From positions 806,475 to 870,474 of the forward strand of contig CAVRLO010000024.1 of NCBI GenBank assembly GCA_963721815.1: 64,000 nt of DNA, read 5' to 3'. A program made the position numbers and the translations under genes. Below are positions 17,777 to 31,952 of the stretch, piece by piece. This DNA is from an uncultured Candidatus Rokubacteria bacterium. Lineage in GTDB: Bacteria; Methylomirabilota; Methylomirabilia; Rokubacteriales; CSP1-6. Below the pieces are notes generated by a model. The model ran no database searches. It was given only the letters and a program-made list of their open reading frames with translations, and was not told the origin of the DNA. Numbering within the stretch: the first letter of the stretch is position 1; every line of letters starts with the position of its first letter.

Positions 17777-20138
17777 ATGGCCAATCCGGTGACCGTCGAG
17801 AAATTCGGAGTCGGGCAGTCCGTGCGTCGCATCGAAGACCCACGCTTGCTCCAGGGGTTCGGGCGCTACTCGGACGACGTGAACCTGCCCCAGCAGGCCT
17901 ACGCCGTGGTGGTCCGCTCTCCCCACGCGCACGCGGCCATCCGCTCGATCGACTCCTCCGCGGCCCGCAACGCGAGCGGCGTGCTCGCCGTGCTCACCGG
18001 CGCCGACCTGGCGTCCGACCGGCTCGGCGACTTGCCGACGGACAAGAGCCGCAAGCGGCGCGACGGGTCGGCGGCGTTCGCGACGCCTCGGCCGGCGCTG
18101 GTCCGGGATCGCGTCCGCCACGTGGGCGACCCGGTGGCGTTCGTCGTCGCCCAGACTATGGAGCAGGCGGTCGATGCGGCCGAGCGGGTCGCGATCGACT
18201 ACGAGCCGCTGCCGGCCGTCGCCGCGACGGCCGACGCGATCCGCCCGGGCGCGCCGGCGGTGTGGGCGGAGGTGCCGGACAACACCGCGTTCGTGTGGGA
18301 AGCGGGTAAGAAAGACGAGACGGCGCGCGCCATCGCCGGTGCCGCGCACGTCACCAAGCTGGATTTCGTCGTGACGCGCGTGGCCGCCGCGCCGATGGAG
18401 CCGCGCGGCGCGGTTGGCGAGTGGGATCGGCGCACCGGCCGTTACACCCTTCACACGGGCATCCAGGCGCCGCACGGCCTTCGTACCCTGCTCGCGGATC
18501 AGGTGTTCAAGGTGCCGCACAGCCATCTGCGGGTCGTCACCGGCGAAGTCGGCGGCAGCTTCGGCATGAAGAGCGGCGTCTATCCCGAGGTCGTGCTGGT
18601 GCTGTGGGCGGCCAAGCGACTGGGGCGGCCGGTCAAGTGGACCTCGGATCGCCGTGAAGGCTTCGTCACCGACGAGCACGGGCGCGACAACGTCTCCACG
18701 GCCGAGCTGGCGCTCGACGCCGACGGAAAGTTCCTGGCCTTGCGCGTGGCCATCAACCTGAACGTCGGCGCCTATCTCACGCCGCGCAGCGCCGGGCCGG
18801 GCACCAACAACGTCGGCGGCATCGCCGGGATCTACACGACGCCCGCGATCCACGTGCAGACGACCGGTGTGTTCTCGAATACGACGCCGACGGGGCCCTA
18901 TCGCGGCGCCGGCCGCCCCGAGGCGACGTACGCGATCGAGCGCGTCATCGACGTGGCGGCCATGGAGCTCAAGATCGACCCGATCGAGCTACGCCGTCGC
19001 AATCTGATCCCGGCCTCCGCGATGCCGTTCAAGACGGGGCTCGTCTTCACCTACGACTGCGGCGAGTTCGGGCGCGGGATGGACATGGCGTTGAGTCTGG
19101 CCGACCGCGCAGGCTTCGAGAAGCGGCGCGCCGAGGCCCGGCAGCGGGGCAAGCTGCGCGGCCTGGGCATCGCCAATCCGATCGAGGTCGCCGGCGGGCC
19201 GTACACCGCGATGAATCCGGATACCGCCGAGCTCAGGGTCAACGCCGACGGCTCGGTGTCTCTGTTCACCGGCTCGACGTCGATGGGGCAGGGCAACGAA
19301 ACGGCCTTCGCCCAGATCGTCAGCGAGAAGCTCGGCGTGCCGCCCGAGCGCATCCAGGTGTTCTGGGGCGACAGCGACTTGCTCGGCGCGGGCCGTGGCA
19401 ACGGCGGCTCGGGCGCGCTCACGGTGGGCGGCTCGGCCGTGACGCGGGCTACCGAGAAGATCATCGAGCGGGGACGCAAGATCGCAGCGCGGTTGCTCGA
19501 GGCCGCTCCGGAAGACGTGGTCCACCAGGATGGAAAGTTCACGGTGAAGGGCACGGACAAGGGCGTGACGTTCGCCAACGTCGCCCGCGCCGCGTACGTG
19601 CCGCGCCAGCTTCCCCAGGGGATGGAGCCTGGCTTCAGCGAAGAGGCCTCGTTCACGCCGTCGGCGGTGACGTTCCCCAACGGATCGCAGATCTGCGAGG
19701 TCGAGATCGATCAGGAGACCGGTGCGGTGCAAGGTCGTGCGCCACACCGTCGTCGATGACGTCGGGCGCATGGTGAACCCGATGCTCGTGAAGGGACAGA
19801 TCCACGGCGGCGTGGTCCAGGGGCTCGGCCAAGGGCTCTACGAAGAGCTCACGTACGAGCCGACGACCGGTCAGCTGCTCGCCGGCTCCTTCATGGACTA
19901 CGCGATGCCGCGCGCCGACGACATGCCCGCCTTCGACGTCGATTCCCACGAGGTGCCGACCGAGGTCAATCCGCTCGGCGCCAAGGGCGTCGGTGAAGCC
20001 GGAACGGTGGGTGCGCTGCCGGCGCTCCTGAACGCGGTCAACGATGCGCTGGCACCGCTCGGCGTCCGGCACCTCGACATGCCGGTGACGCCCGAGCGCG
20101 TCTGGCGCGCGATCCAGGACGGGAAAGCTCGCCGCTGA
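17777..20138 (+). CDS. xanthine dehydrogenase/CO dehydrogenase-family molybdopterin-binding large subunit (CoxL-like, AYRGAGR type), one frame break
   Basis: ORF 17777..19759 reads GQSVRRIEDPRLLQGFGRYSDD...GGSFGMK...TPTGPYRGAGRPEATYAIERVID...EVEIDQETGAV. It continues in ORF 19722..20138 with VVRHTVVDDVGRMVNPMLVKGQIHGGVVQGLGQGLYEE...NPLGAKGVGEAG. The shift lies near 19715-19730. Confidence 0.85.
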
Positions 20139-22205: not shown

Positions 22206-23924
22206 TCAGGGGAAACGTCGCTCCAGATGCTCGAGGACGAGCGCGCTGAGCTGGCGCCGATCACGCGTTTGCGAGAACGCGTGATCGGCGCCCTTCACGA
22301 TCTCTACCCGGAATCCGGGCCGGCGGCGCAGCGCGGTCCCGCGTCTCCCCAGCTGGGCCTCCAGCTCCTCGATGCCGTCGTCGCCCTCGCCGAACACGAT
22401 CAGCAGTTCCGCTCCTCGCGCCAGCGGCGCCTCGAGCGCCACGCTCAGGGGGAGCGCGCTCGGGTCGGCCGGCAGCTGACGGAATGCGCTCAGCCAGGCC
22501 ACGCGGGCCGCCCGGCGGAAGAGCCCTGTCGCCACTCCCACGATGTCGATCTCGCCGCGGGCGATACGCTGCCAGGTGTCGCGCCGGCGCAGGGCCTGGC
22601 GGCTATAGCGCATGGTGCCTGCGAGCGCACGCACTTCCCGATCCCGCACTCCCGCCCGACGAACCGGGATCCTCGGGTTGATCAGGACCGCCCCGATCAC
22701 CCGCGCGTCGCACCACGAGGCCTGCACGGCGACGTGCGCGCCCGAGCACAGCCCCATGAGCACGAAGCGCGAGGCCACACCTCTGGACTCGAGGAAGTCC
22801 AGCGCCGCCCGCACGTCCTGCTGGCGAGCGTTCCAGTCGATCTGTTCCCAGGTGCGGTCCCCGAATTTCGCGGAATCACCCACGTCAATGAAGTCGAAGC
22901 GCAGCGCGGGGAATCCCCGGCCCGCCACGGCCCGCGCCAGCGGCACGTACATGCGGTGCGGCCCGACGCGATGGTCGAACGCAGCATTGAGAAAGAGGAC
23001 GGCCGGTCCGGTTGACCTCTCCCGCGCCGGGCGGCTGAGGATCCCGAACAGCGCGCCGTCGGGTCCGAATCGACAGATCTCTTCGTCCACGTCGAGACCG
23101 CCGAGTGTCGTGGTCGCTCGGCACGGGCGGGTGGGTGACGGCGCGACGTCGGTCGCGTGAGTGGTCGACATCCACCGCACGATCTCCTCGATCACGGCAG
23201 TGGGGACGACGGGCCTGATCCCATCGTGGCTCATCGAACCGTAGATGTCGCCGGCGGTCGAGTCGACACGGACGCCGGAGGCCTTCCATCGTCGCCCCAG
23301 CGTCCACATCGACGACTGCTGGTTTCGGTGAAGCAGCAGGATGCGAGGACAGGGGGCCGGAAGCGTGGACAGATCCAGGGTGAGCAGCGATTGCACGGTG
23401 GAGGCAGTGAAGAGAAAGCCGCCCGCCTCTTCGGCTCCCGGCGGCAGGTGATCGCGGTTCGGGTTCAGCGCGTGATATGCGCGCAGCGCCCGGACGTACT
23501 GGCGGCCTTCCAGCGTCGGCGCCCACAGGGCCAGGCTGGCGATGTCACGGCGGGCCGCGGCGGCGTACGCGGCCAGCGTGGCACCGATGCTCAGGCCGAA
23601 GAGGCCGACCTCGCTCACGCGGGATTGCGTGCGCAGCTCCTCGACCGCCGTGTCGATGCTCACCAGCCAGGCCTGCAGCCGGTCGGGATCCTCGTCGGTA
23701 CCGAGCGAGTCTCCGGTGCCATCGTAGTCGAACCGCAAGACGGCAAAGCCTGCTCGACTCAGCGCGTCGGCGAGCGCGCGATACGTACCGTGGGTGACGA
23801 GGCCCTCCCAGCCGAGCGGATTGCACAGTACCACGCCGCAGGAGCGCGGGGCCCCCGCGGGAGCGTGGTAGTGGCCGAACAACCGACGGTCGACCGGACC
23901 GAACGCCAGCGAAACCATCGACAT
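22206..23924 (-). CDS. fusion of two alpha/beta-hydrolase domains resembling exosortase-A-system-associated hydrolase 2 (N-terminal) and hydrolase 1 (C-terminal)
   Basis: Intact from M67 of ORF 22206..24122. The N-terminal half reads LFGHYHAPAG...VVLCNPLGWEG...LRFDYDGTGDSLG...VGLFGLSIGATLAAYAA...LALWAP. The C-terminal half reads LFGILSRPA...AVLFLNAAFDHRVGPHRMYVPLARAVAGRGFPALRFDFIDVGDS...FVLMGLCSGAHVAVQ...VLINPRI. Family names are recalled from TIGRFAMs-type annotation and were not searched. Confidence 0.65.
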   Translation of the reverse strand: MSMVSLAFGPVDRRLFGHYHAPAGAPRSCGVVLCNPLGWEGLVTHGTYRALADALSRAGFAVLRFDYDGTGDSLGTDEDPDRLQAWLVSIDTAVEELRTQSRVSEVGLFGLSIGATLAAYAAAARRDIASLALWAPTLEGRQYVRALRAYHALNPNRDHLPPGAEEAGGFLFTASTVQSLLTLDLSTLPAPCPRILLLHRNQQSSMWTLGRRWKASGVRVDSTAGDIYGSMSHDGIRPVVPTAVIEEIVRWMSTTHATDVAPSPTRPCRATTTLGGLDVDEEICRFGPDGALFGILSRPARERSTGPAVLFLNAAFDHRVGPHRMYVPLARAVAGRGFPALRFDFIDVGDSAKFGDRTWEQIDWNARQQDVRAALDFLESRGVASRFVLMGLCSGAHVAVQASWCDARVIGAVLINPRIPVRRAGVRDREVRALAGTMRYSRQALRRRDTWQRIARGEIDIVGVATGLFRRAARVAWLSAFRQLPADPSALPLSVALEAPLARGAELLIVFGEGDDGIEELEAQLGRRGTALRRRPGFRVEIVKGADHAFSQTRDRRQLSALVLEHLERRFP

Positions 23925-23953
23925 CCCGATCGGCTGGTCGGCCCTCGCAGCGC

Positions 23954-26473
23954 TCACGTTGCCGTCTCGCCCTCGTGCACTAACCCCGTCAGGTCGAGCT
24001 TGACCGGTGTCGTCGAGTTGAGCGCACGGACCTGGCCTCCAAGCCGGTCCGGCCGACCGCGGGCGGCGAGCGGCACCGTGACCTCCATTCCGGGGGCCAG
24101 GTGAAAATAGTTGTCCGCGCACTCGAACCCGGGTATGTCCAGGACGACCGACTGGGCGAAGCGGCGGGCGCGCAGTGTGACACGGGCGCTGGTGGCGGAT
24201 TCTCGCTGGGCGACGGCCTGCAGGCCGACGTCGGGGTCGATCTCGTTGGGCAAGCCGAGCGGAAAGTGGAAGGCGCTGGCCAGGCGGTGCCCGCCGGGGC
24301 GCTCGACGAGCTCGACGACGCTCACCTCATGGCTCGGGGGCCCGAAGCGATAGGCGTACGTCGTGTCCGCGAAGCGGCCGAGCATGCCCTCGACCGAATG
24401 GGCCACGGCCTCGTGTCCCGGGAGGAACAACGGGATCGTGGCGGACAACACCGGGACGTCCCCATCTCGCCAGGCGGTAAACCGGATCTCCGCGTCGAGC
24501 GCGCACTCGCTGTCGTTGACGGCGTGGACGACAAGGCCGTTGAGACCTTCGTCGAGGAGGAACACGGCCACGGGGGCGAGCGCGCGTTTCAGGTAATAGT
24601 AGGCGGCCTTGGGTCTACCGTCCGAATCGATGACACCCCAGCCGGCCCCCGGCCAGAGATCGCGGAAGAACCACACCAGGCCGCCCCGACACGACGAGCC
24701 GACGCGGCGCCATTCGGCAAACGTGCTCGCCATCAGCTCCCCCGTGGCGACGCGGCCGAGTTCCAGGTAGCGAGCCGGATCGCGATGCTGCAGCGTCAAC
24801 GGGTCGACCCGGAACAGCTGCTGGACATAGTGGTCGCGGACGTCCTCGAAATCCCAGCTCGCGCCAGCGTCGCGGGGCACCCGTTCCTTCCAGATGGGTC
24901 GGTGGATCGGCGCTGGAACGGGACCGAGGATCTTGTGGATCATCGTGTCGTCGGGGACGTTGGCGAAGGCGAGGCACTCGGACGCGAACCGCACGTGTGA
25001 GCGACGCGCGTCGTCGGGGCCGCGTCGGTACGCGCCGACGCCGTAGTAGTGACAGATGCCGGTGTCGACGTGGAACGGCAAGACACCACCGCTCGGCGTG
25101 GAGGCCACGTAAGGAATCTCGGGCACCCGAGCCCGACACAGGGCGGGGAGCACGTCCTCGAAGAGCGTGCCGCGCCCACGGCTGGCCGGCAGGCCGAGCA
25201 TCGCCGCCTGTTGCTCGACCTCGCTGTTGCCGCACAGCACCGCGAGAGACGGCCGAGCCGCGAGCCGGTCGAGCAGCTGATTTGCCTCCCGACAGATGTC
25301 CGCGGTGAAGGCGGGGTCGTCGCCGGGGTAGTCCATGCTGGCGAACATGAAGTCTTGCCAGACGAGGATTCCCAGCTCGTCGCAGAGATCGTAGAAGTCG
25401 TCCGCCTCGTAGAACATCGTGCCGCTCACGCGGAGCAGGTTCATTCCGGCCGCGCGGGCCGCCTCCAGCGCTCGTCGGTACGCTTCCCGGCTTCCCGTGA
25501 GCGTCGCCACGTCCGTGGTCGTCCAGCATGCCCCTCGCGCGAAGATGGGCACGTCATTGACCCGCAGCTCGAAGCCGCCGTGGTCGGTCGAGGTGGCCAG
25601 GGTCCGGAACCCGACGGCGCCGGCGCCCAGCACCACCTCCGCGCCGGCCACCTGCGCGGTCACCCGGGTCGGATACAGGCGCGGAAGTCCGTGGGTGTGT
25701 GGCCACCAGCTCTCGACCGAATCGAGCCGCACCGCGCCGCCGAGCTCGAGGCGCCCGCCCGGGACCGGACGGGTCTGGAGCCGCGCCGTCCGGTCCCCGA
25801 CCATGACCATCGCCGTGTCGATGGCCTGCCCCTCGAAGGGAGCAAGACGAGCGAGGACGCTGACCACGCCGGCGCCGCCGGCAACGCGCGCGTCGACGTG
25901 CAGCGCCTCGACCGTGCCGCCCACACGGTCATCGATCCACACCGGCCGCCAGGGTCCGACCGCGACGGCCGGTGGTGACCAGCCTGGCGTGCGGCCCAGC
26001 AGGGAGGTGCGAATCCAGCGCAGCCCCTGATGCCGGACCAGGCGCGTCTTCCAGCGCGGGCGCGAGCGCTTCTCCTGCAGTACCGCGTCGAGGGATGCGA
26101 ATCGGATCAGCAGCTCGTTGTCCCGCTCGAGCTGGCGGCTCACGTCGACCTCGTGCCCCACGAACATGCTGGTCGAGCGCAGCAGATGATGGCCGTTGAG
26201 CCACACGTCGGCCACGGTGGCCAGGCCGGCGAATCCCAGAAAGACGTGGTGACCGGGCGCCGGCGCCGGACCTGAAAACCTGCAGCGATACCACCAGTCC
26301 TCGGCGTCGAAATCCCGCCGACTCGACAGATCCCACTCGCCGGCCGCTCGCAGCGCGGAGGCCACGGTGCCAGGGACGATCGCGGGCCGCCACGACGGTG
26401 CGGGAGGAGCGGCCGTCGAACCGGGAACGGCCGGCGCGCATTCCCAGTGTGCGGTGAGCAGTCGCCGGCTCAC
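23954..26473 (-). CDS. glycoside hydrolase family 2-like protein (beta-mannosidase/exo-glucosaminidase-like), no signal peptide
   Basis: Intact. A GTG start at 26473 overlaps the stop of the upstream gene (GTGA). The sequence includes EDWWYRCRF, VADVWLNGHHL, ESWWPHTHGLPRLY, NLLRVSGTMFYEADDFYDLCDELGILVWQDF, LCGNSEVE (candidate acid/base) and RFASECLAFANVP (candidate nucleophile). Confidence 0.7.
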   Translation of the reverse strand: MSRRLLTAHWECAPAVPGSTAAPPAPSWRPAIVPGTVASALRAAGEWDLSSRRDFDAEDWWYRCRFSGPAPAPGHHVFLGFAGLATVADVWLNGHHLLRSTSMFVGHEVDVSRQLERDNELLIRFASLDAVLQEKRSRPRWKTRLVRHQGLRWIRTSLLGRTPGWSPPAVAVGPWRPVWIDDRVGGTVEALHVDARVAGGAGVVSVLARLAPFEGQAIDTAMVMVGDRTARLQTRPVPGGRLELGGAVRLDSVESWWPHTHGLPRLYPTRVTAQVAGAEVVLGAGAVGFRTLATSTDHGGFELRVNDVPIFARGACWTTTDVATLTGSREAYRRALEAARAAGMNLLRVSGTMFYEADDFYDLCDELGILVWQDFMFASMDYPGDDPAFTADICREANQLLDRLAARPSLAVLCGNSEVEQQAAMLGLPASRGRGTLFEDVLPALCRARVPEIPYVASTPSGGVLPFHVDTGICHYYGVGAYRRGPDDARRSHVRFASECLAFANVPDDTMIHKILGPVPAPIHRPIWKERVPRDAGASWDFEDVRDHYVQQLFRVDPLTLQHRDPARYLELGRVATGELMASTFAEWRRVGSSCRGGLVWFFRDLWPGAGWGVIDSDGRPKAAYYYLKRALAPVAVFLLDEGLNGLVVHAVNDSECALDAEIRFTAWRDGDVPVLSATIPLFLPGHEAVAHSVEGMLGRFADTTYAYRFGPPSHEVSVVELVERPGGHRLASAFHFPLGLPNEIDPDVGLQAVAQRESATSARVTLRARRFAQSVVLDIPGFECADNYFHLAPGMEVTVPLAARGRPDRLGGQVRALNSTTPVKLDLTGLVHEGETAT

Positions 26474-27447
26474 GAACCATACCGGGCGGTCAGCTGTGTG
26501 AGTCCTCGTTCCCAGTTCGCTTGCATGGTCGACAACATCGGCCCGAAGTCCACCGCCCTGTTCGTCGTGACCGCGCGGGCGGTCTTGAGCAGCATGGCCT
26601 TGGCGGTGACCGCGATCGCCTCGAACTCGGCCGCGGCCGCGCCGAGGCCGCTCTCGCCATGACGCTCGAGCCATCGAAGGTGCTGGGCGGCCAGCTCGAA
26701 GGCCCCTCCGAGCTGGCGCAACATAGCGAACGCATACCCATGGTAGGCGCCCGGCTCGAGCCGCAGACACGCTACGTCCTCGTGAACACGCTCGGCGAAT
26801 TTCGCGATGGGATTCGCTCGGGGCACGCGCGAGAGATGACCGGCCAGGAGCGCGAGCGAGGTCTTGACCAGCATGGGATCGGGTAGTCGTCGCCGGCTGC
26901 CCAGCTTGACGATCTCGACATAGGGCGGCAAGCCACTAGCGGACGGGTCGAGGGGCGGGAGGATACCGGTGTACTCCTCGCCGCCGAGCTCGAAGTAGCC
27001 GGCATTGTGGAAGTAGCCGAGCCGACGGGCATCGGGATCGATCGCCACGATGCCAATCGTGGTCTTGGCGTGCCGGGTTCGATAGTCGGTGCCGGCGGTG
27101 TCGGGGAGATGGAAGCTGTCCACCTCCACCAGCACCACCCGACCGTGCTGGATCTGCTCTATCGTGTGCGCCTGCAGGGAGCGCCAGATGGTCAACTCCT
27201 GCACGTCCACGCCATAGAGCTGGTACAGGTCGGCGTGCGAGGGCTTGAAGAACGTCCATTGATCACCCTCGAAATCGACGGCCACCGTGAAACCCAGGCA
27301 CGCCATAGGCTCGAGCTCGAGGGTGTGGAGCAGCTCGATCCACAAATCTGCGTAGCAGTTGGTCTCGGTCCAGGTTCGCTCGCCCTGGTGCAGCCCGTGG
27401 GGCGTCCAGGGGCGAGAATCGAGCGGGGCGACGGCGTGGTACTTCAC
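26470..27447 (-). CDS. DUF1839-like protein of unknown function
   Basis: Intact 325-aa ORF: MKYHAVAPLDSRPWTPHGLHQGERTWTETNCYADLWIELLHTLELEP.... I recall this type of protein being annotated DUF1839 next to amino acid:[carrier protein] ligase genes. An ATGA overlap links it to the ligase gene. Confidence 0.5.
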   Translation of the reverse strand: MKYHAVAPLDSRPWTPHGLHQGERTWTETNCYADLWIELLHTLELEPMACLGFTVAVDFEGDQWTFFKPSHADLYQLYGVDVQELTIWRSLQAHTIEQIQHGRVVLVEVDSFHLPDTAGTDYRTRHAKTTIGIVAIDPDARRLGYFHNAGYFELGGEEYTGILPPLDPSASGLPPYVEIVKLGSRRRLPDPMLVKTSLALLAGHLSRVPRANPIAKFAERVHEDVACLRLEPGAYHGYAFAMLRQLGGAFELAAQHLRWLERHGESGLGAAAAEFEAIAVTAKAMLLKTARAVTTNRAVDFGPMLSTMQANWERGLTQLTARYGS

Positions 27448-28361
27448 GTCCAGAGCCGGTGCCGGACCGGCTCCGGCCAGCGGTCGGGGTCGAAACCGTG
27501 AACCTGGAACAGGGCCAGAACGATGCGCTCCAGGCCGAATCCGAGACAGGCCGTGTGGGCGACGCCGCCCTCGGCGGTGACGATTCCGAACTTCGAGGCG
27601 AAGTGATCCTCATGGTAGTTGAGCGACATCACGGCGGTCGGCCGCTCGGACGACGTGATGGGCACGACGGCCTCGAGCTTGAGCTTCTGGTCTCGTTGAC
27701 TGCCGGCGAGCCATTTCCCCCGACGGCCGAAGAACGGATCGGAGGCGGGGACGACCTCGACCGCCAGTCCCAGCGCGCGCATGATCGAGGCCCCCCGCTC
27801 GATCCAGCGTGCCCGCCAGTCGAGGACTACCTCAGGCGAAGCGAGCCGGACGTGTTCGCGCATCCGGAACGCTTGCAGCCGCGCCGGGTCCGGGGAGGGC
27901 TCGCGGCGAAAGCAATATGAGGTCAGGTCGATCAGGCGTCCGGCGAACGGCAGGCTGCCCCGACAGGTCGGGTATGCGGGATAGCAGGCGGCGGACGACA
28001 GCGCGACGTCAGTCATCTTCAAGAACGTGCTCCAGTCCCCTCCTGCCGCCACCTGCGCCTGCAGCTCGGCGTGATCCGCGTCGTCTCCCTCGAAGCTGAA
28101 CACCGTTCCGGCCAGGTGTGGAAAGGAGCCCAGGAACCCGCTCTGCTCCACCAGCCGACGCGGGATGACGGGCGGAAAGTGCATGGCCTCGGCACCATCG
28201 TCGGCGACGGTGCGTGAGATGTGCTGGTTCACGCCGGCCAGCACCATCTCGAAGGTGTTGTTGCGCCCGACGACACCCGGGACCCCGAGTGGAATGATCA
28301 GCCCCCGGCCTACGAGCTCGTCGTGGAAGGGGGGTTCCTCGTCCCTGGACCTGACGATCAT
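27444..28361 (-). CDS. amino acid--[acyl-carrier-protein] ligase (class II aminoacyl-tRNA-synthetase catalytic-core homolog without a tRNA-binding domain)
   Basis: The C-terminal 305 aa of ORF 27444..28946 start at ATG 28361, which forms an ATGA overlap with the upstream gene. Class II motif 2 is LTSYCFRREPSPDPARLQAFRMREHV and motif 3 is HTACLGFGLERIVLALF. The segment ALSSAACYPAYP resembles the zinc-site region of methanogen-type SerRS. The protein is too short to be a real aaRS. Confidence 0.75.
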   Translation of the reverse strand: MIVRSRDEEPPFHDELVGRGLIIPLGVPGVVGRNNTFEMVLAGVNQHISRTVADDGAEAMHFPPVIPRRLVEQSGFLGSFPHLAGTVFSFEGDDADHAELQAQVAAGGDWSTFLKMTDVALSSAACYPAYPTCRGSLPFAGRLIDLTSYCFRREPSPDPARLQAFRMREHVRLASPEVVLDWRARWIERGASIMRALGLAVEVVPASDPFFGRRGKWLAGSQRDQKLKLEAVVPITSSERPTAVMSLNYHEDHFASKFGIVTAEGGVAHTACLGFGLERIVLALFQVHGFDPDRWPEPVRHRLWT

Positions 28362-29557
28362 GCGTCGGACTTGGACACGAGCAGCAAGGCGGCATTCGTG
28401 GCAAGGATCCGATCGTTGCCGATCATCAGAGGCGCGGAGTGCGCGTCGCGGAGCTGACGGCCGAGGCCGAACTCCGAATCGTTCGCATAGCCGGCCATGC
28501 CGCAGACGAGCAGAGCCTGCTGGACGATCTCGACGAGCTGGCGCGACGCCGTGAGCTTGAGCCCGTTCATCCGCACTGCGAAGCCGAGCCCTGGACCTGC
28601 CTGCTCTCCGTCGGTGGCGTCGAGCAGGTGCCGGTACTCGACGATCACGCCTTGCACCCCCGCGCGCATCGCCTGGAAGGTGGCGCACAGATCGGCGAGA
28701 CGCGCGGCGGTCGCGGGTACCGCTCCCGGCCGCTGGCGGGCCTGGTCGCGCACGAAGCTCCGCGCCCGCTCGACGGCGTCGCTCGCGAGCCCCAGCCACA
28801 CGTTGGCCCACAGGATGTGGGAGAACGGGACCATGGTGGCGCTGGCGATGTCCGCGAACGGTACCGTCAGGATCTGATCTAGCCGGCCGTGCCCGGTTAC
28901 ACGGAAGGCGGGACTGCACGTCCCGCGCATGCCCAGCGTTTGCCACGTACCCCGACGCTCGAGCGAGTAGTGGGGCCGTCGGAGCAGCAGGAGGACCTGA
29001 TCATTGCTGGCCGCGGCCGGCGACCGGCGGGCCGTGACCAGGACATCATCGGCCTCCTCGCCGTACGAGATGGCGGCGGCCACCTTCTCGAGCCGAAATC
29101 CTTCCGCGTCGGCCTGGACGGCGCACTGGCTGGTGCGCAGGTCGCCACCGACGCCGACTTCCGACGTGGCGGACGCGATCAGGAGCTGGCGCTCGGTGAC
29201 CTCGGCGAGGTACGCGCGGATCCAGGACGAACTCATGCCGTGGCGGACCAGGCAGGCCACCTCGATGTAGTGCATCGCCAGGACCATCGCGGTGCTGGCG
29301 CAGTACCGGCCCAGGAGCCGGCAGAGCGCGGCAAGCTCCGCGATGCCACAGCCCAGACCGCCGAGGTCGGTCGGTATCCCGGCGCCGAGCGCCTTCGCCT
29401 TCTTGAGCTCGGCCAGTGCCTCGTGGGGGAACCGCGCGTCGCGGTCGATCTCCGGGGCCAGTGGCCCCGCGACCTCGACGCCGATGCGCCGGACCTGCGC
29501 CTCGAGTCGATCACGACCTCGAGAAGCCTGCGGCGCCGGCGATGGCATCGGGGGCAA
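28358..29557 (-). CDS. acyl-CoA dehydrogenase family protein
   Basis: Intact 399-aa ORF with a TTG start at 29557 or an ATG at 29548. The sequence includes IPTDLGGLGCGIAELAALCRLLGRYCASTAMVLAMH, LIASATSEVGVGGDLRTS, WQTLGMRGTCS and CGMAGYANDSEFGLGRQLRDAHSAPLMIGNDRI, the typical ACAD architecture. Confidence 0.8.
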   Translation of the reverse strand: MPPMPSPAPQASRGRDRLEAQVRRIGVEVAGPLAPEIDRDARFPHEALAELKKAKALGAGIPTDLGGLGCGIAELAALCRLLGRYCASTAMVLAMHYIEVACLVRHGMSSSWIRAYLAEVTERQLLIASATSEVGVGGDLRTSQCAVQADAEGFRLEKVAAAISYGEEADDVLVTARRSPAAASNDQVLLLLRRPHYSLERRGTWQTLGMRGTCSPAFRVTGHGRLDQILTVPFADIASATMVPFSHILWANVWLGLASDAVERARSFVRDQARQRPGAVPATAARLADLCATFQAMRAGVQGVIVEYRHLLDATDGEQAGPGLGFAVRMNGLKLTASRQLVEIVQQALLVCGMAGYANDSEFGLGRQLRDAHSAPLMIGNDRILATNAALLLVSKSDA

Positions 29558-29558
29558 A

Positions 29559-29801
29559 TCAGCGGTGGAGCTGCAACTGTTCGATGGCTGCCCGGATCGC
29601 GTTGACGGATGCGAACGTCGCCCGGTTTAGCATCGAGTCGGGGAACTCCAGATCGAACGCCTCTTCGAGTCCCAGCATGACATTGACGCCAGCGTGCGAC
29701 GTCATCCCGGCCTGGTAGAGATCGGTATCGTCCTCCAGCGCCTCCGGAGGGACGCGCAGCCGACCGTGCTCGACCAGGACGACGCGAATCCGGTCATTCA
29801 A
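29559..29801 (-). CDS. acyl/peptidyl carrier protein (phosphopantetheine attachment site present)
   Basis: The 80-aa ORF has a TTG start that overlaps the PPTase stop (TTGAATGA). The motif DLYQAGMTSHAGVNVMLGLEEAFDLEFPD contains the conserved Ser for 4'-phosphopantetheine. Confidence 0.8.
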   Translation of the reverse strand: MNDRIRVVLVEHGRLRVPPEALEDDTDLYQAGMTSHAGVNVMLGLEEAFDLEFPDSMLNRATFASVNAIRAAIEQLQLHR

Positions 29802-30108
29802 CGCGGCGGCCTTTCCCGCGCTCCTCGGCCACGACCACCGCGGTCGCGTAGGTGCCGTCGTGACTCAGGCTGACTTCGAGCTCGCCCAGGCCCTGGGCGT
29901 CAGCCAGGGCCGCCGCCGCACCGCTGAGTCTCAGCTCGCACCATCCGCGAAACGTGCCGCGAGGCTTACCGGGCGCGACCTTCGCCGTCTCCCGCAGACA
30001 GTCAGCGCGCTCATCCTGGGTGAAGATCCGATCGAGGGAACGGGATCGGAAGCGGGGCAGCGACGTCGAGACCTCTTCTATGCACACGAGGTCGATTCCC
30101 ACTCTCAT
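29794..30108 (-). CDS. short AcpS-type 4'-phosphopantetheinyl transferase (holo-ACP synthase-like)
   Basis: The 104-aa ORF reads MRVGIDLVCIEEV...LDRIFTQDERADC...EVSLSHDGTYATAVVVAE, which matches the GIDxVxI / F...E / SLSH...A.A blocks of AcpS. The central region is shorter than in canonical AcpS. Confidence 0.55.
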   Translation of the reverse strand: MRVGIDLVCIEEVSTSLPRFRSRSLDRIFTQDERADCLRETAKVAPGKPRGTFRGWCELRLSGAAAALADAQGLGELEVSLSHDGTYATAVVVAEERGKGRRVE

Positions 30109-30390: not shown

Positions 30391-30580
30391 TCAGGCGACG
30401 GCCACCGTGGCGCGCGGGCGCGCGCCCGTCCCCGGCGGATCGGGCAGCGCGAACGCCTCGAAGGGCCGGTTCACCAGCCGCCCGTTGTCGGCCGTCAGGC
30501 GCTCGCGCACGGTTCCCGCCACCCTGACGGTCTGCTCCACGTCGAAGGCGACCCTCTGGCTGCTGCGCCAGGTCGAGCAT
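30391..30580 (-). CDS. small hypothetical protein (about 50-63 aa), probable frame break near its 5' end
   Basis: The strongly GC3-biased frame gives ...VAFDVEQTVRVAGTVRERLTADNGRLVNRPFEAFALPDPPGTGARPRATVAVA*. The ATG at 30580 (MLDLAQQPEG) is in the neighbouring frame, and an in-frame GTG alternative lies at 30540. Before the IS insertion this ATG lay 3 nt after the TAG of the upstream gene. Confidence 0.3.
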
Positions 30581-30582
30581 GG

Positions 30583-30588
30583 CCTAGA
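30583..30588. repeat. target-site duplication CCTAGA (left copy)
   Basis: This copy is identical to 31617-31622 and directly abuts the IS inverted repeat. It fits the NCTAGN target known for IS481. Confidence 0.85.
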
Positions 30589-31528
30589 TGTGAACGAGCA
30601 TGAGGTTGTTCCCCCGCGGGAACCGACTCATGGGTGGCTGCCGGTTGAGACTCGTATGCGGTCGAGCGCAATTGTAGTGCTCCAGCCAGCCCGGGAGGAC
30701 CCGGCCACGATCCGCCGAGGTGTAGTAGGGCCGCCGGTACGCCCACTCGCGCAGCGCGGTCTGGATGAAGCGCTCCGCTTTGCCGTTCGTGCGGGGCGTG
30801 TAGGGGCGGGTCCGGCGATGGATCACGCGCAGGGCTCGACAGGCGGCCCGAAAGCTCCGGGAGCGATAGGCCGAGCCGTTGTCGGTCAGGATCCGGCGCA
30901 CGCGCACGCCGTGGGCGCGAAACCAGCGCAGCGCGCCCCGCAGAAAGCGACGGGCGGTCAGTTGGCCTTCGTCGGGGAGCAACTCCACGTAGGCGACGCG
31001 CGAGTGATCATCGACGGCGACGTGCAAGTATTCCCAGCCGGCGCCGCTGAACCGGTGGAAGCGCTGCCCGGTCACGCGGTGCCCCAGGCCGCGAATCCGG
31101 CCCAGCTTCTTGGAATCGAGGTGGAGCAGATCGCCGACCGCCGCGTGCTCGTAGCGCTGGGCGACCAGGGGGGCCGTGAGCCGCCCGCGCCGCGAGAGCC
31201 CACACCGCCGCAGCACGCGGGCGACGGTGGCCGCACTCACCTCGAGCGCGACCGCGATCTGCCCGCAGGTCCACTGCTGGCGCCGCAACACCTTGGCGGC
31301 GAGCTGCAGGCGCGCGGCCGTGAGCCGGGGACTGGTGTGGGGCCGGCTCGACCGGTCGGCCAAGCCGGCCCAGCCGTCGGCCTGATAGCGAGCGCGCCAC
31401 TTCCGGGCAGTATGGGCCGATACGGCGAACCCGCGCGCCAGGCGCTTGAGGGGTTCGCCGGCTTCCAGCCGCATCACCAGTTCTTGTCGACGGCGCAGCG
31501 TGAGTCGGGCATTCTTGTGGACGTTCAT
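30584..31528 (-). CDS. IS481-family DDE transposase (rve integrase core)
   Basis: From M84 of ORF 30584..31777 it reads MNVHKNARLTLRRRQELVMRLEAGEPLKRLARGFAVSAHTARKWRARYQ (HTH)...LLHLDSKKLG...ILTDNGSAYRS...YTPRTNGKAERFIQTALREW (D, D, E). The TAG stop at 30584-30586 lies in the flanking CTAG target duplication, outside the inverted repeat. Confidence 0.9.
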   Translation of the reverse strand: MNVHKNARLTLRRRQELVMRLEAGEPLKRLARGFAVSAHTARKWRARYQADGWAGLADRSSRPHTSPRLTAARLQLAAKVLRRQQWTCGQIAVALEVSAATVARVLRRCGLSRRGRLTAPLVAQRYEHAAVGDLLHLDSKKLGRIRGLGHRVTGQRFHRFSGAGWEYLHVAVDDHSRVAYVELLPDEGQLTARRFLRGALRWFRAHGVRVRRILTDNGSAYRSRSFRAACRALRVIHRRTRPYTPRTNGKAERFIQTALREWAYRRPYYTSADRGRVLPGWLEHYNCARPHTSLNRQPPMSRFPRGNNLMLVHI

Positions 31529-31616
31529 CCAGGCCTCCTGTCCCGGGTGAGTAATGACTTGGCAGCCACTACTTTCCCCAGGTCGGCCTGGGTGAACAAC
31601 CTCTTGCTTCGTCACA
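30589..31616 (-). mobile_element. IS481-family insertion sequence, 1028 bp, apparently intact
   Basis: The imperfect terminal inverted repeats are TGTGAACGAGCATGAGGTTGTTCCCCC (30589-30615) and TGTGACGAAGCAAGAGGTTGTTCACCC (reverse complement of 31590-31616), matching at 22 of 27 positions. They are flanked by direct CCTAGA copies. A single DDE transposase ORF fills the element. Confidence 0.9.
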
Positions 31617-31622
31617 CCTAGA
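31617..31622. repeat. target-site duplication CCTAGA (right copy)
   Basis: This copy is identical to 30583-30588 and directly abuts the other inverted repeat. Confidence 0.85.
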
Positions 31623-31952
31623 TCAGGTCGGACCCGAACCGGCGCGGCGCCGCCGCGTACTTCGCCACCACGCCCGGCAACTCTCCTCGGCAGCGGACGG
31701 CGGACGAGGTCGATTCGGGAAACCTCGCTGTCCTCAAGCGTGACCGGCACTGCGGCGCCGTCGTCGCTGAGCGCCATCTTGAGGCGTACTCGAGTTCGCC
31801 ATCATCGTCGGTCCAGAACACGAAGTATGGGCGTCGGCGGGGATCGCCGAAGACCACCGTGCGGGGAAGGTGGGAAGCCGAGGCCCGCTCTCTACGTTGA
31901 CGCGGACACCACAGAAATCCCCGTCGGAAACTCGCACCCCTGTTTTCTCCAT
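31618..31952 (-). pseudogene. hypothetical gene readable only across three frames
   Basis: The pieces are MEKTGVRVSDGDFCGVRVNVESGPRLPTFP / RTVVFGDPRRRPYFVFWTDDDGELEYAS / KMALSDDGAAVPVTLEDSEVSRIDLVRRPLPRR / ELPGVVAKYAAAPRRFGSDLI*. The TAG stop is the CTAG used by the IS as its target. I recognise no family. Confidence 0.3.
31681..31785 (-). repeat. about 105-nt segment paralogous to 21775-21878 (inverted orientation)
   Basis: See the feature at 21775-21878. The alignment was done by hand. Confidence 0.6.

Follow-up and report, generated by a model that had tools for sequence, protein, structure and literature searches.

What becomes of an amino acid once a ligase descended from an aminoacyl-tRNA synthetase (aaRS) has tethered it to a carrier protein (CP) is a question that dates from 2010, and reviews up to 2022 still call the fate of the aminoacyl-CP unknown. 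When the amino acid:[carrier protein] ligases themselves were first reported that year, they were reportedly presented as connecting ribosomal with non-ribosomal peptide synthesis. The same question is raised by a seven-gene operon on the minus strand, at positions 22206-30108 of a 64,000-nt stretch of contig CAVRLO010000024.1 from an uncultured Candidatus Rokubacteria bacterium (assembly GCA_963721815.1); this whole stretch is referred to below as the window. In order of transcription the operon encodes a 4'-phosphopantetheinyl transferase (PPTase) remnant, a CP, a protein with the fold of acyl-CoA dehydrogenases (ACADs), an amino acid:[carrier protein] ligase, a DUF1839 protein, an enzyme of glycoside hydrolase family 2 (GH2) and a fused double alpha/beta hydrolase. 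We give slightly better than an even chance to a thiotemplated pathway in which the ligase would load the CP, the amino acid would be oxidized on the carrier, DUF1839 would transfer it to an amine, and GH2 and the hydrolase would contribute further steps.

Within this pathway the loading of the CP is far more secure than the later steps. The ligase scored 406.5 bits against the NF005479 model (cut-off 357), with residues 6-304 aligned to profile positions 16-316 of 318, and a sequence search of the PDB matched residues 18-301 to the structures of Bradyrhizobium Bll0957 (3mey, 4h2w) at E values of 5e-76 to 6e-79. Archaeal-type seryl-tRNA synthetase (SerRS) was matched at 1e-15 through its catalytic part only (residues 118-303 on 311-509 of 527). 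That the gene might be a fragment of a genuine SerRS was considered and rejected, since the protein scores above the equivalog cut-off, is not truncated relative to its family and shares its size with more than 4,000 homologues (283-339 aa); the previous identification as an amino acid:[carrier protein] ligase encoded beside its CP is upheld. Residues Cys126 (AACYP), Glu154 (FRRE) and Cys272 (TAC) are identical to the aligned residues of Bll0957, invariant in 26 homologues and conserved in 81, and they are putative zinc ligands according to the assignment reportedly made in Mocibob 2010. The CP gene lies one gene away from the ligase gene, with the ACAD gene between them. Its phosphopantetheine-attachment residue Ser35, located in DLYQAGMTSHAGV and encoded at 29697-29699, recurs in 97% or more of 74 orthologues, and DltC is the second-best NCBIfam match of the protein. 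Reviews published in 2017 and 2022 (2022: PMC9437257) name Gly or Ala as the amino acids that such ligases attach to a CP encoded in their own operon, and for a phaR mutant of B. diazoefficiens both bll0957 and its ACAD neighbour bll0958 are listed as about 3-fold up (PMC10888616). There is a strong case, drawn from sequence, that the ligase of the window would likewise aminoacylate the phosphopantetheine of its neighbouring CP.

A pattern scan of 185,579 species genomes returned at least 592 loci with a relative of the ligase. The best 80 loci, with flanks of up to 10 kb, were kept and searched with the proteins of the window; the following counts refer to loci with enough flank, and as these 80 are the closest relatives of the query, percentages describe this subfamily. 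The gene order CP-ACAD-ligase-DUF1839-GH2 recurs in 93-100% of evaluable loci, which come from many phyla, with ACAD present in 77 of 77, the CP in 71 of 77, DUF1839 in 73 of 74 and GH2, always on the ligase strand, in 57 of 61 loci. The double hydrolase was found in 46 of 53 loci, directly downstream of GH2 in 34, while the PPTase was detected by tblastn in 17 of 75, and a separately clustering AcpS-like family occurred in 10 loci, some of them additional. Hosts belong to the Myxococcota, Chloroflexota, Gemmatimonadota, Nitrospirota and Armatimonadota as well as the Alpha-, Beta- and Gammaproteobacteria and include the genera Rhizobium, Azospirillum, Methylobacterium, Bosea and Undibacterium; one Chloroflexota locus has a seven-gene layout identical to that of the window. 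The same gene order in dozens of unrelated genomes is far from chance. A chance juxtaposition of the GH2 and hydrolase genes was rejected on their recurrence, and the neighbourhood comparison bears out the suggestion that both belong to a conserved unit.

The combination as such, of which the earlier note was not aware of any description, is not new. Its five-gene core synteny was noted in passing in 2023, when the supplement of Ozhelvaci & Steczkiewicz listed GH2 (-1), aa-ACP ligase (+1), ACAD (+2) and acyl carrier protein (ACP; +3) as neighbours of DUF1839 in proteobacteria, with 'fatty acid/phospholipid protein processing' as the suggested role (PMC10318531), and RefSeq/NCBI annotation already covers every component routinely. 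The locus is another member of a widespread, annotated cluster with published core synteny, and apart from its decayed PPTase the window is unexceptional.

The protein that would take the acyl group off the CP is most likely DUF1839, as judged from its fold and genomic context. Its AlphaFold2 (AF2) model, built with 37 homologues, reached a predicted local distance difference test (pLDDT) score of 92 and a predicted template modelling (pTM) score of 0.90 and consists of an N-terminal alpha/beta part (strands and short helices to about residue 181) followed by long C-terminal helices (190-323). A Foldseek comparison with the PDB gave 17 matches with E<0.004 (from 8e-7) at a probability of 1.0, all of them from three systems, namely AziU2/U3 (azinomycin), CtaG (closthioamide) and CcbD (celesticetin), including CcbD in complex with the peptidyl carrier protein (PCP) of CcbZ. 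A PDB sequence search found no match for DUF1839 (best E = 1.1). BtrH_N was the only second Pfam family recurring in DUF1839 proteins, weakly (4 of 37, best E 0.0022), and the protein of the window matched it at E = 0.067 only, so there is no membership in the papain-like transacylases at the sequence level; the predicted relation to CP-dependent transacylases appears at the level of the fold only. Cys31, the candidate nucleophile, is invariant in 73 of 73 sequences, and among these orthologues His126, Lys128, Thr129/130, His147 and Asn148 are invariant or nearly so, as is the acidic character of residue 158. For CtaG a ping-pong mechanism through a Cys intermediate with transfer from CP to amine has been described (PMC12865890), CcbD/LmbD take CP-tethered proline onto the catalytic Cys and pass it to the amine of an amino-octose (PMC12945683), and both CcbD and BtrH acylate amino sugars (PMC12865890, PMC12945683). 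Acyl transfer had previously been assigned to the alpha/beta hydrolases, with DUF1839 treated as an unknown; the fold comparison favours DUF1839 for this role.

The canonical Glu base is absent from the ACAD-like enzyme, and for this reason a plain alpha,beta-dehydrogenase is improbable. Where medium-chain acyl-CoA dehydrogenase (MCAD; Y-E/T-G-T motif) has its base Glu376, all 75 aligned sequences carry Ile or Val379. His247, Trp250, Asn381 and Arg383 are invariant in the column counts, and by hand alignment the alternative helix-G base position would fall on Ser246-His247. No NCBIfam equivalog came near its cut-off in the hidden Markov model (HMM) search, and with 27-29 bits for the RedW/PigA models (cut-offs 500-650) as well as the missing Glu the analogy to PltE/RedW drawn earlier is weak. 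In the PDB sequence search the best matches tied between the nitrososynthase DnmZ (3.2e-15), an amino-sugar N-oxygenase, and a short-chain ACAD (3.5e-15). The AF2 model (pLDDT 87.7) gave Foldseek template modelling (TM) scores of 0.74-0.79 to ACAD-fold structures, mostly short-chain ACADs, and short-chain ACADs, 3-sulfinopropionyl-CoA desulfinase and the TdsC monooxygenase were all matched at about 1e-17 to 1e-18 and thus not separable. Oxidation of the amine or of the C-alpha-N bond appears the more likely activity.

Among PDB entries the GH2 protein matched the beta-mannosidases 5n6u (1.8e-58) and BtMan2A (2je8/2vjx, 1e-50). Its acid/base Glu418 (CGNSE) and nucleophile Glu499 (FASEC), shared by 97% or more of 59 orthologues, fall opposite CGNNE and MSEFG in the alignment to BtMan2A, the motifs that contain E462 and E555 of that enzyme. 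With both Glu residues kept the enzyme is putatively competent for catalysis, while part of the sugar-binding region differs (GICHYYGVGAY here, GDSHNWGVWYG in BtMan2A).

For the fused hydrolase, numbered here as the 572-aa form, the best match of the N-terminal half was hydr2_PEP (TIGR03101, 110.4 bits against a cut-off of 202.75, residues 15-147) and that of the C-terminal half hydr1_PEP (TIGR03100, 141.2 bits against 168.45, residues 291-568). These two exosortase-A-associated families are, according to their TIGRFAM descriptions, paired with each other and found with a CP and an adenylating ligase. The exosortase connection suggested earlier is not sustained, since both halves fall below the cut-offs and no additional family recurs in more than 12 of 78 loci. 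Nothing resembling an exosortase was seen among the recurrent extra families read from about 78 loci, no exosortase-specific search having been made, and literature searches found no papers on an exosortase-associated hydrolase/ACP/ligase system. A PDB sequence search with the hydrolase returned only generic esterases and MHETase-like enzymes. In the C-terminal half Cys393 (G-x-C-S-G), Asp515 and Asp547-His548 are invariant, the Cys being present in 48 of 48 sequences, and the predicted active site is a dienelactone-hydrolase-like Cys-Asp-His triad. At the nucleophile elbow of the N-terminal half 32 of 43 orthologues carry Arg, eight Gly and one His; a nucleophile is absent in 42 of 43, and this half would usually be non-catalytic. 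The two halves are fused in 45 of 48 loci. The window alone has a canonical G-x-S-x-G at the N-terminal elbow, with Ser112 in GLSIG (residues 110-114, 23587-23601), and in one locus without GH2 (L061) the hydrolase gene directly follows DUF1839.

The earlier note had described the pathway as self-contained, priming its own carrier, and the operon as intact without a frame break. The reference for examining this was a metagenomic contig (L001) that is 98% identical to the operon outside the PPTase gene, and against it six genes are indeed full length (97-99% amino-acid identity), while the PPTase is not intact. AcpS models cover only profile positions 1-47 and 76-125, and the scores are below cut-off (Pfam ACPS 23.5 vs 25; TIGR00556 36.7 vs 45.35). 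DNA alignment to L001 revealed a +1 insertion within 29960-29973 and an 85-bp deletion with its junction within 29941-29956; the net change of -84 nt keeps the frame open at the cost of six codons out of frame and about 28 codons lost, among them the FAAKE... core. Three-frame translation of L001 restores the missing segment GSLAARFAAKEGTLKVLRPNGHAVPWTAIEVRRAAGGWCELRLSG, and L001 in turn bears two frameshifts in this gene that differ from the lesions of the window. Identity to L001 is 91.5% with 21 gap positions in 480 nt for the PPTase and its upstream region, compared to 98.8% with 8 gap positions in 7756 nt for the remaining ~7.7 kb. Across the ACAD, ligase, DUF1839 and GH2 genes the differences amount to 30 synonymous codon changes, 29 non-synonymous ones and zero indels, a rough ratio of non-synonymous to synonymous rates (dN/dS) of ~0.3 that indicates constraint, and the hydrolase differs by a single in-frame codon indel.

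The lesions in the window and those in L001 are independent sets, which points to true pseudogenisation more than to one error of assembly, and the PPTase appears to be decaying in this lineage. In L001 the CP gene contains an extra C in a C-run at ~1190-1200, with a frameshift after residue 54, and further homopolymer-length differences make this assembly look indel-prone, which tempers pseudogene calls that rest on single-base indels. With its PPTase decayed, priming in this genome must rely on another PPTase. The claim of self-priming is therefore not supported, as the gene is broken here and occurs in only about one third of the homologous loci; a dedicated PPTase is an optional accessory of the cluster, defunct in this genome and dispensable.

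The proposed pathway would begin with the zinc-dependent aaRS-core ligase adenylating a small amino acid (Gly or Ala in the case of homologues) and thioesterifying it onto the phosphopantetheine of Ser35. The ACAD-fold flavoenzyme would then oxidize or oxygenate the tethered aminoacyl group by non-canonical chemistry, and DUF1839, as its fold and context suggest, would take the acyl group on Cys31 and transfer it in a ping-pong reaction to an amine acceptor, possibly an amino sugar. The cytoplasmic GH2 enzyme might make the glycosidic or amino-sugar acceptor or trim the product, and the C-terminal Cys-Asp-His half of the fused hydrolase might serve as a thioesterase/proofreader or as a deprotecting hydrolase. 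A CP pathway ending in transfer to a sugar-related acceptor, which had already been proposed for this locus, was judged a reasonable reading. A more specific version, which we offer tentatively and with the balance against it, is that the cluster provides the long-sought steps that follow loading by the aaRS-derived amino acid:[carrier protein] ligases and ends in a widespread, undescribed N-acyl amino-sugar metabolite of soil- and plant-associated bacteria. Gly or Ala would in that case be oxidized to, for example, an imino, glyoxylyl, pyruvoyl or N-oxygenated unit that DUF1839, then a branch of the papain-like thiotemplated ligases not recognised before, would condense with an amino sugar or glycoside supplied or trimmed by GH2.

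Several points weigh against the thiotemplated pathway. Nearly all of the full-length Foldseek matches of DUF1839 have TM scores of only ~0.55-0.6 at 9-15% sequence identity, and for papain-like DUF1839 a rearranged C-(T/S)-H site has been proposed (PMC10318531); with a non-canonical triad the protein could hydrolyse the acyl thioester instead of transferring the acyl group. Neither sequence nor fold discriminates between reaction classes for the ACAD-like enzyme, and this enzyme could act on the acceptor instead of the tethered aminoacyl group. Clustering of open reading frames (ORFs; all of at least 120 aa from 78 loci) showed that genes for acceptor biosynthesis, glycosyltransferases and transporters are not conserved with the cluster, as no further family was found in more than 12 of ~78 loci, and the identity of the acceptor is therefore a guess. 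A few loci, such as L021 and L061, are without GH2, and both keep the double hydrolase; the core chemistry may depend less on GH2 than on the hydrolase. Finally, reviews call the biological role of aminoacyl-CPs unknown (PMC9437257).

The non-canonical triad of DUF1839 and its place in a protease superfamily (PMC10318531) would also suit a different outcome, in which hydrolysis by DUF1839 and/or the Cys-hydrolase sets the oxidized aminoacyl group free as a small molecule, either a modified amino acid or a short product, and GH2 carries out an associated but chemically separate step such as freeing a sugar-masked precursor or conferring self-resistance. Exporters of the major facilitator superfamily (MFS) or ATP-binding cassette (ABC) type adjoin the cluster in some genomes (Phyllobacterium, Chloroflexota), and the failure to find conserved acceptor-supply genes points in the same direction. 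However, where function is known, the nearest structural neighbours of DUF1839 act as transferases and not as hydrolases, a papain-like enzyme or a Cys alpha/beta hydrolase would by itself suffice for hydrolytic release, the near-constant presence of GH2 argues for a direct chemical link, and transporters are not conserved across loci. Taken as a whole, release of a free molecule with GH2 as a separate step seems unlikely to us. We are more doubtful still about the model of the earlier note, a self-priming pathway with a PltE/RedW-like ACAD and with alpha/beta hydrolases as acyltransferases in the decoration or remodelling of an (exo)polysaccharide. Exosortase-A hydrolases 2 and 1 as best NCBIfam matches of the two hydrolase halves, DltC as runner-up for the CP, the conserved GH2 gene and an exopolysaccharide (EPS) chain-length-determinant-like ORF within 10 kb in 9 of ~78 loci are consistent with such a role. 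It is opposed by the scores of both hydrolase halves (110 vs 203 and 141 vs 168 bits), by a hydrolase N-terminal half that mostly has no nucleophile and by the low RedW/PigA scores of the ACAD-like protein. No extra family exceeds 12 loci and no glycosyltransferase was among the recurrent families read, all seven proteins are free of signal peptides and membrane segments, most loci are without the PPTase and its copy here is broken, and DUF1839 is the better transferase candidate.

A third possibility concerns this genome only, namely that the locus is a decaying, non-functional remnant. The lesions in the PPTase gene and the two frameshifts in the copy of the 98% identical relative would fit decay, as would the IS481-family element 463 nt upstream and a neighbouring molybdoenzyme gene that is split across two frames. 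We nevertheless consider a remnant very improbable, given that six genes are full length with all catalytic residues kept, that four of them are free of indels relative to L001 with a dN/dS indicative of constraint, and that about two thirds of the homologous loci are without a dedicated PPTase anyway. The thiotemplated pathway with DUF1839 as the putative off-loading enzyme is the reading retained here.

Regarding the layout of the operon, an ORF check of the window recovered all seven minus-strand ORFs previously listed (Table 1), HMM searches of all seven proteins confirmed every family assignment, and the quoted motifs YCFRRE, GFGLERIVLALF and DLYQAGMTSHAGV were all found in the translations. 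In minus-strand reading the PPTase/CP junction at 29794-29801 is TTGAATGA, where the TTG start of the CP gene overlaps the PPTase stop, the ACAD/ligase junction at 28358-28361 is ATGA, the DUF1839/GH2 junction at 26470-26473 is GTGA, and the CP and ACAD genes are separated by 1 nt (position 29558), all as noted before. The ligase/DUF1839 junction at 27444-27447, previously given as ATGA, reads GTGA, with GTG as the start codon of DUF1839. The reported 29-nt gap between GH2 and the hydrolase depends on the hydrolase starting with ATG at 23924; it disappears if the start is the alternative GTG at 23957, which overlaps the GH2 stop as GTGA and is of the type used in the gene calls of L001 and one Chloroflexota locus. 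In a promoter/terminator scan of the locus, which is uninformative in a high-GC organism, promoter-like sites were absent and a single terminator-like site turned up where 3.1 would arise by chance. The tight start/stop overlaps and the lack of a convincing internal terminator fit a single transcript without proving it. In a hydropathy scan none of the seven proteins showed a signal peptide or membrane segment.

Table 1. Genes of the operon in the window, listed in order of transcription.
Feature	Coordinates	Strand	Length	Assignment and remarks
AcpS-type 4'-phosphopantetheinyl transferase remnant	29794..30108	-	104 aa	ORF open; AcpS models match ends only
Dedicated carrier protein	29559..29801	-	80 aa	NF005480/PRK07081, 102.6 bits (cut-off 72); PF00550 also matches
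ACAD-fold flavoenzyme	28358..29557	-	399 aa	Pfam ACAD N, M and C domains; not a canonical acyl-CoA dehydrogenase
Amino acid:[carrier protein] ligase	27444..28361	-	305 aa	Class II aaRS catalytic core without tRNA-binding domain
DUF1839 protein	26470..27447	-	325 aa	PF08893, 371 bits; predicted papain-like CP-dependent transacylase
GH2 beta-mannosidase-like glycosidase	23954..26473	-	839 aa	Pfam Glyco_hydro_2_N2 and Ig_mannosidase; no signal peptide
Fused double alpha/beta hydrolase	22206..23957	-	583 or 572 aa	583 aa from GTG 23957; 572 aa from ATG 23924

Upstream of the operon an IS481-family element (30571-31634) lies in the same orientation, 463 nt from the first operon gene. It encodes rve, LZ_Tnp_IS481 and helix-turn-helix (HTH) domains and is bordered by 45-nt imperfect inverted repeats that are 73% complementary; a second copy was not found within the window, and homology to L001 stops at 30410. 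On the other side of the operon the large subunit of a molybdopterin oxidoreductase of the xanthine/CO-dehydrogenase type (17777-20138) is split into two overlapping frames, a 660-aa ORF that stops at position 219 of the 283 positions of the MoCoBD_2 profile and an ORF at 19722-20138 in which the rest continues. This agrees with an earlier remark that the window is rich in frame breaks.

Among the neighbours of the cluster in other genomes, ABC transporter, methyltransferase and esterase genes were lineage-specific, as were MFS transporters in single loci. MFS-type genes adjoin the cluster on a Phyllobacterium plasmid (L083, 8863-10362), where the multidrug-resistance (MDR)-type gene is directly upstream of the ACP gene and LuxR and LysR regulators lie further upstream, and in a Chloroflexota metagenome-assembled genome (L082, 17313-18770), where the gene is downstream of the cluster. 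ORFs resembling efp, epmA and epmB, encoding elongation factor P (EF-P), a PoxA/EpmA-type ligase and a lysine 2,3-aminomutase, were identified by eye upstream of the CP gene in ten mostly rhizobiaceal loci (L035, L044, L051, L058, L062, L063, L068, L077, L078 and L081). They would place a second aaRS-derived amino-acid-transfer system beside the cluster, probably through lineage synteny. An ORF similar to EPS chain-length determinants/tyrosine autokinases was present within 10 kb in nine loci (L015, L031, L036, L047, L051, L064, L070, L076 and L081) from Methylobacterium, Bosea, Methylovirgula and others and was the sole hint of polysaccharide seen.

The putative link between DUF1839 and the transacylases, which rests on crystal structures released 2022-2025, makes the question of 2010 directly testable. 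The window itself adds one more copy of the cluster; the rest comes from comparative work, which identified the Cys-dependent half of the hydrolase and the intact GH2 enzyme as putatively obligatory partners and the dedicated PPTase as dispensable. Tractable hosts of the cluster are found in Agrobacterium, Rhizobium, Bradyrhizobium, Methylobacterium and Azospirillum, in which its product could be identified by genetic work together with metabolomics.

When compared to known systems, the locus corresponds to the published DUF1839 synteny in having the same five genes in the same order, to which the present analysis adds the fused double hydrolase, the optional PPTase, non-proteobacterial hosts and the structural tie of DUF1839 to transacylases (PMC10318531). 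With the ligase/CP pairs of Bradyrhizobium (Bll0957; 3MEY, 3MF1, 4H2W) and Agrobacterium (Atu2573) it shares the ligase family, the positions of the zinc ligands, a dedicated adjacent CP of the PRK07081 family and a neighbouring ACAD gene, as for bll0958 next to bll0957; it differs from them in the moderate identity of its ligase to Bll0957 and in the decayed PPTase. The exosortase-A hydrolases 1 and 2 (TIGR03100/TIGR03101) are the closest named families of the hydrolase halves, yet both cut-offs are missed, and unlike those proteins the two halves are fused here in the order hydrolase 2 then hydrolase 1, with no conserved exosortase or EPS genes nearby. A further parallel is offered by the Dlt (DltA/DltC) and AlmEFG systems, in which, as proposed here, an amino acid is thioesterified on a small dedicated CP, DltC being the second-best match of the CP of the window. 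These systems D-alanylate or glycylate the cell envelope, a decoration and not peptide synthesis, by means of ANL-type ligases and the membrane transferases DltB/DltD or AlmG, whereas all proteins of the present cluster are predicted to be soluble and its ligase is aaRS-derived.

The closest parallel for the predicted transfer step is the class formed by CtaG (closthioamide), AsbE (petrobactin), BtrH (butirosin) and CcbD/LmbD (lincosamides). Its members share with DUF1839 a bipartite fold composed of a papain-like N-terminal domain and a helical C-terminal domain and, by prediction, an N-terminal nucleophilic Cys and a stand-alone CP as donor. Unlike in this class, the triad of DUF1839 would be rearranged, and its donor would be loaded by an aaRS-type ligase instead of an ANL or ATP-grasp enzyme. 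The pathway to the 4-amino-2-hydroxybutyrate (AHBA) side chain of butirosin, the nearest analogue in overall logic and reportedly worked out by Li et al. 2005 and Llewellyn et al. 2007, is said to employ the ACP BtrI, the ligase BtrJ, BtrK, the flavin monooxygenase BtrO/BtrV, BtrH and BtrG, and to proceed from ACP loading through flavin-dependent oxidation of the tethered intermediate to BtrH-mediated transfer to an amino sugar and deprotection by BtrG. Every enzyme except the transferase comes from a different family in the present cluster, which is without aminoglycoside genes, and the likeness is one of mechanism and not of membership: the same logic of loading, oxidation on the carrier, transfer to an amine and hydrolytic finishing would apply to both.

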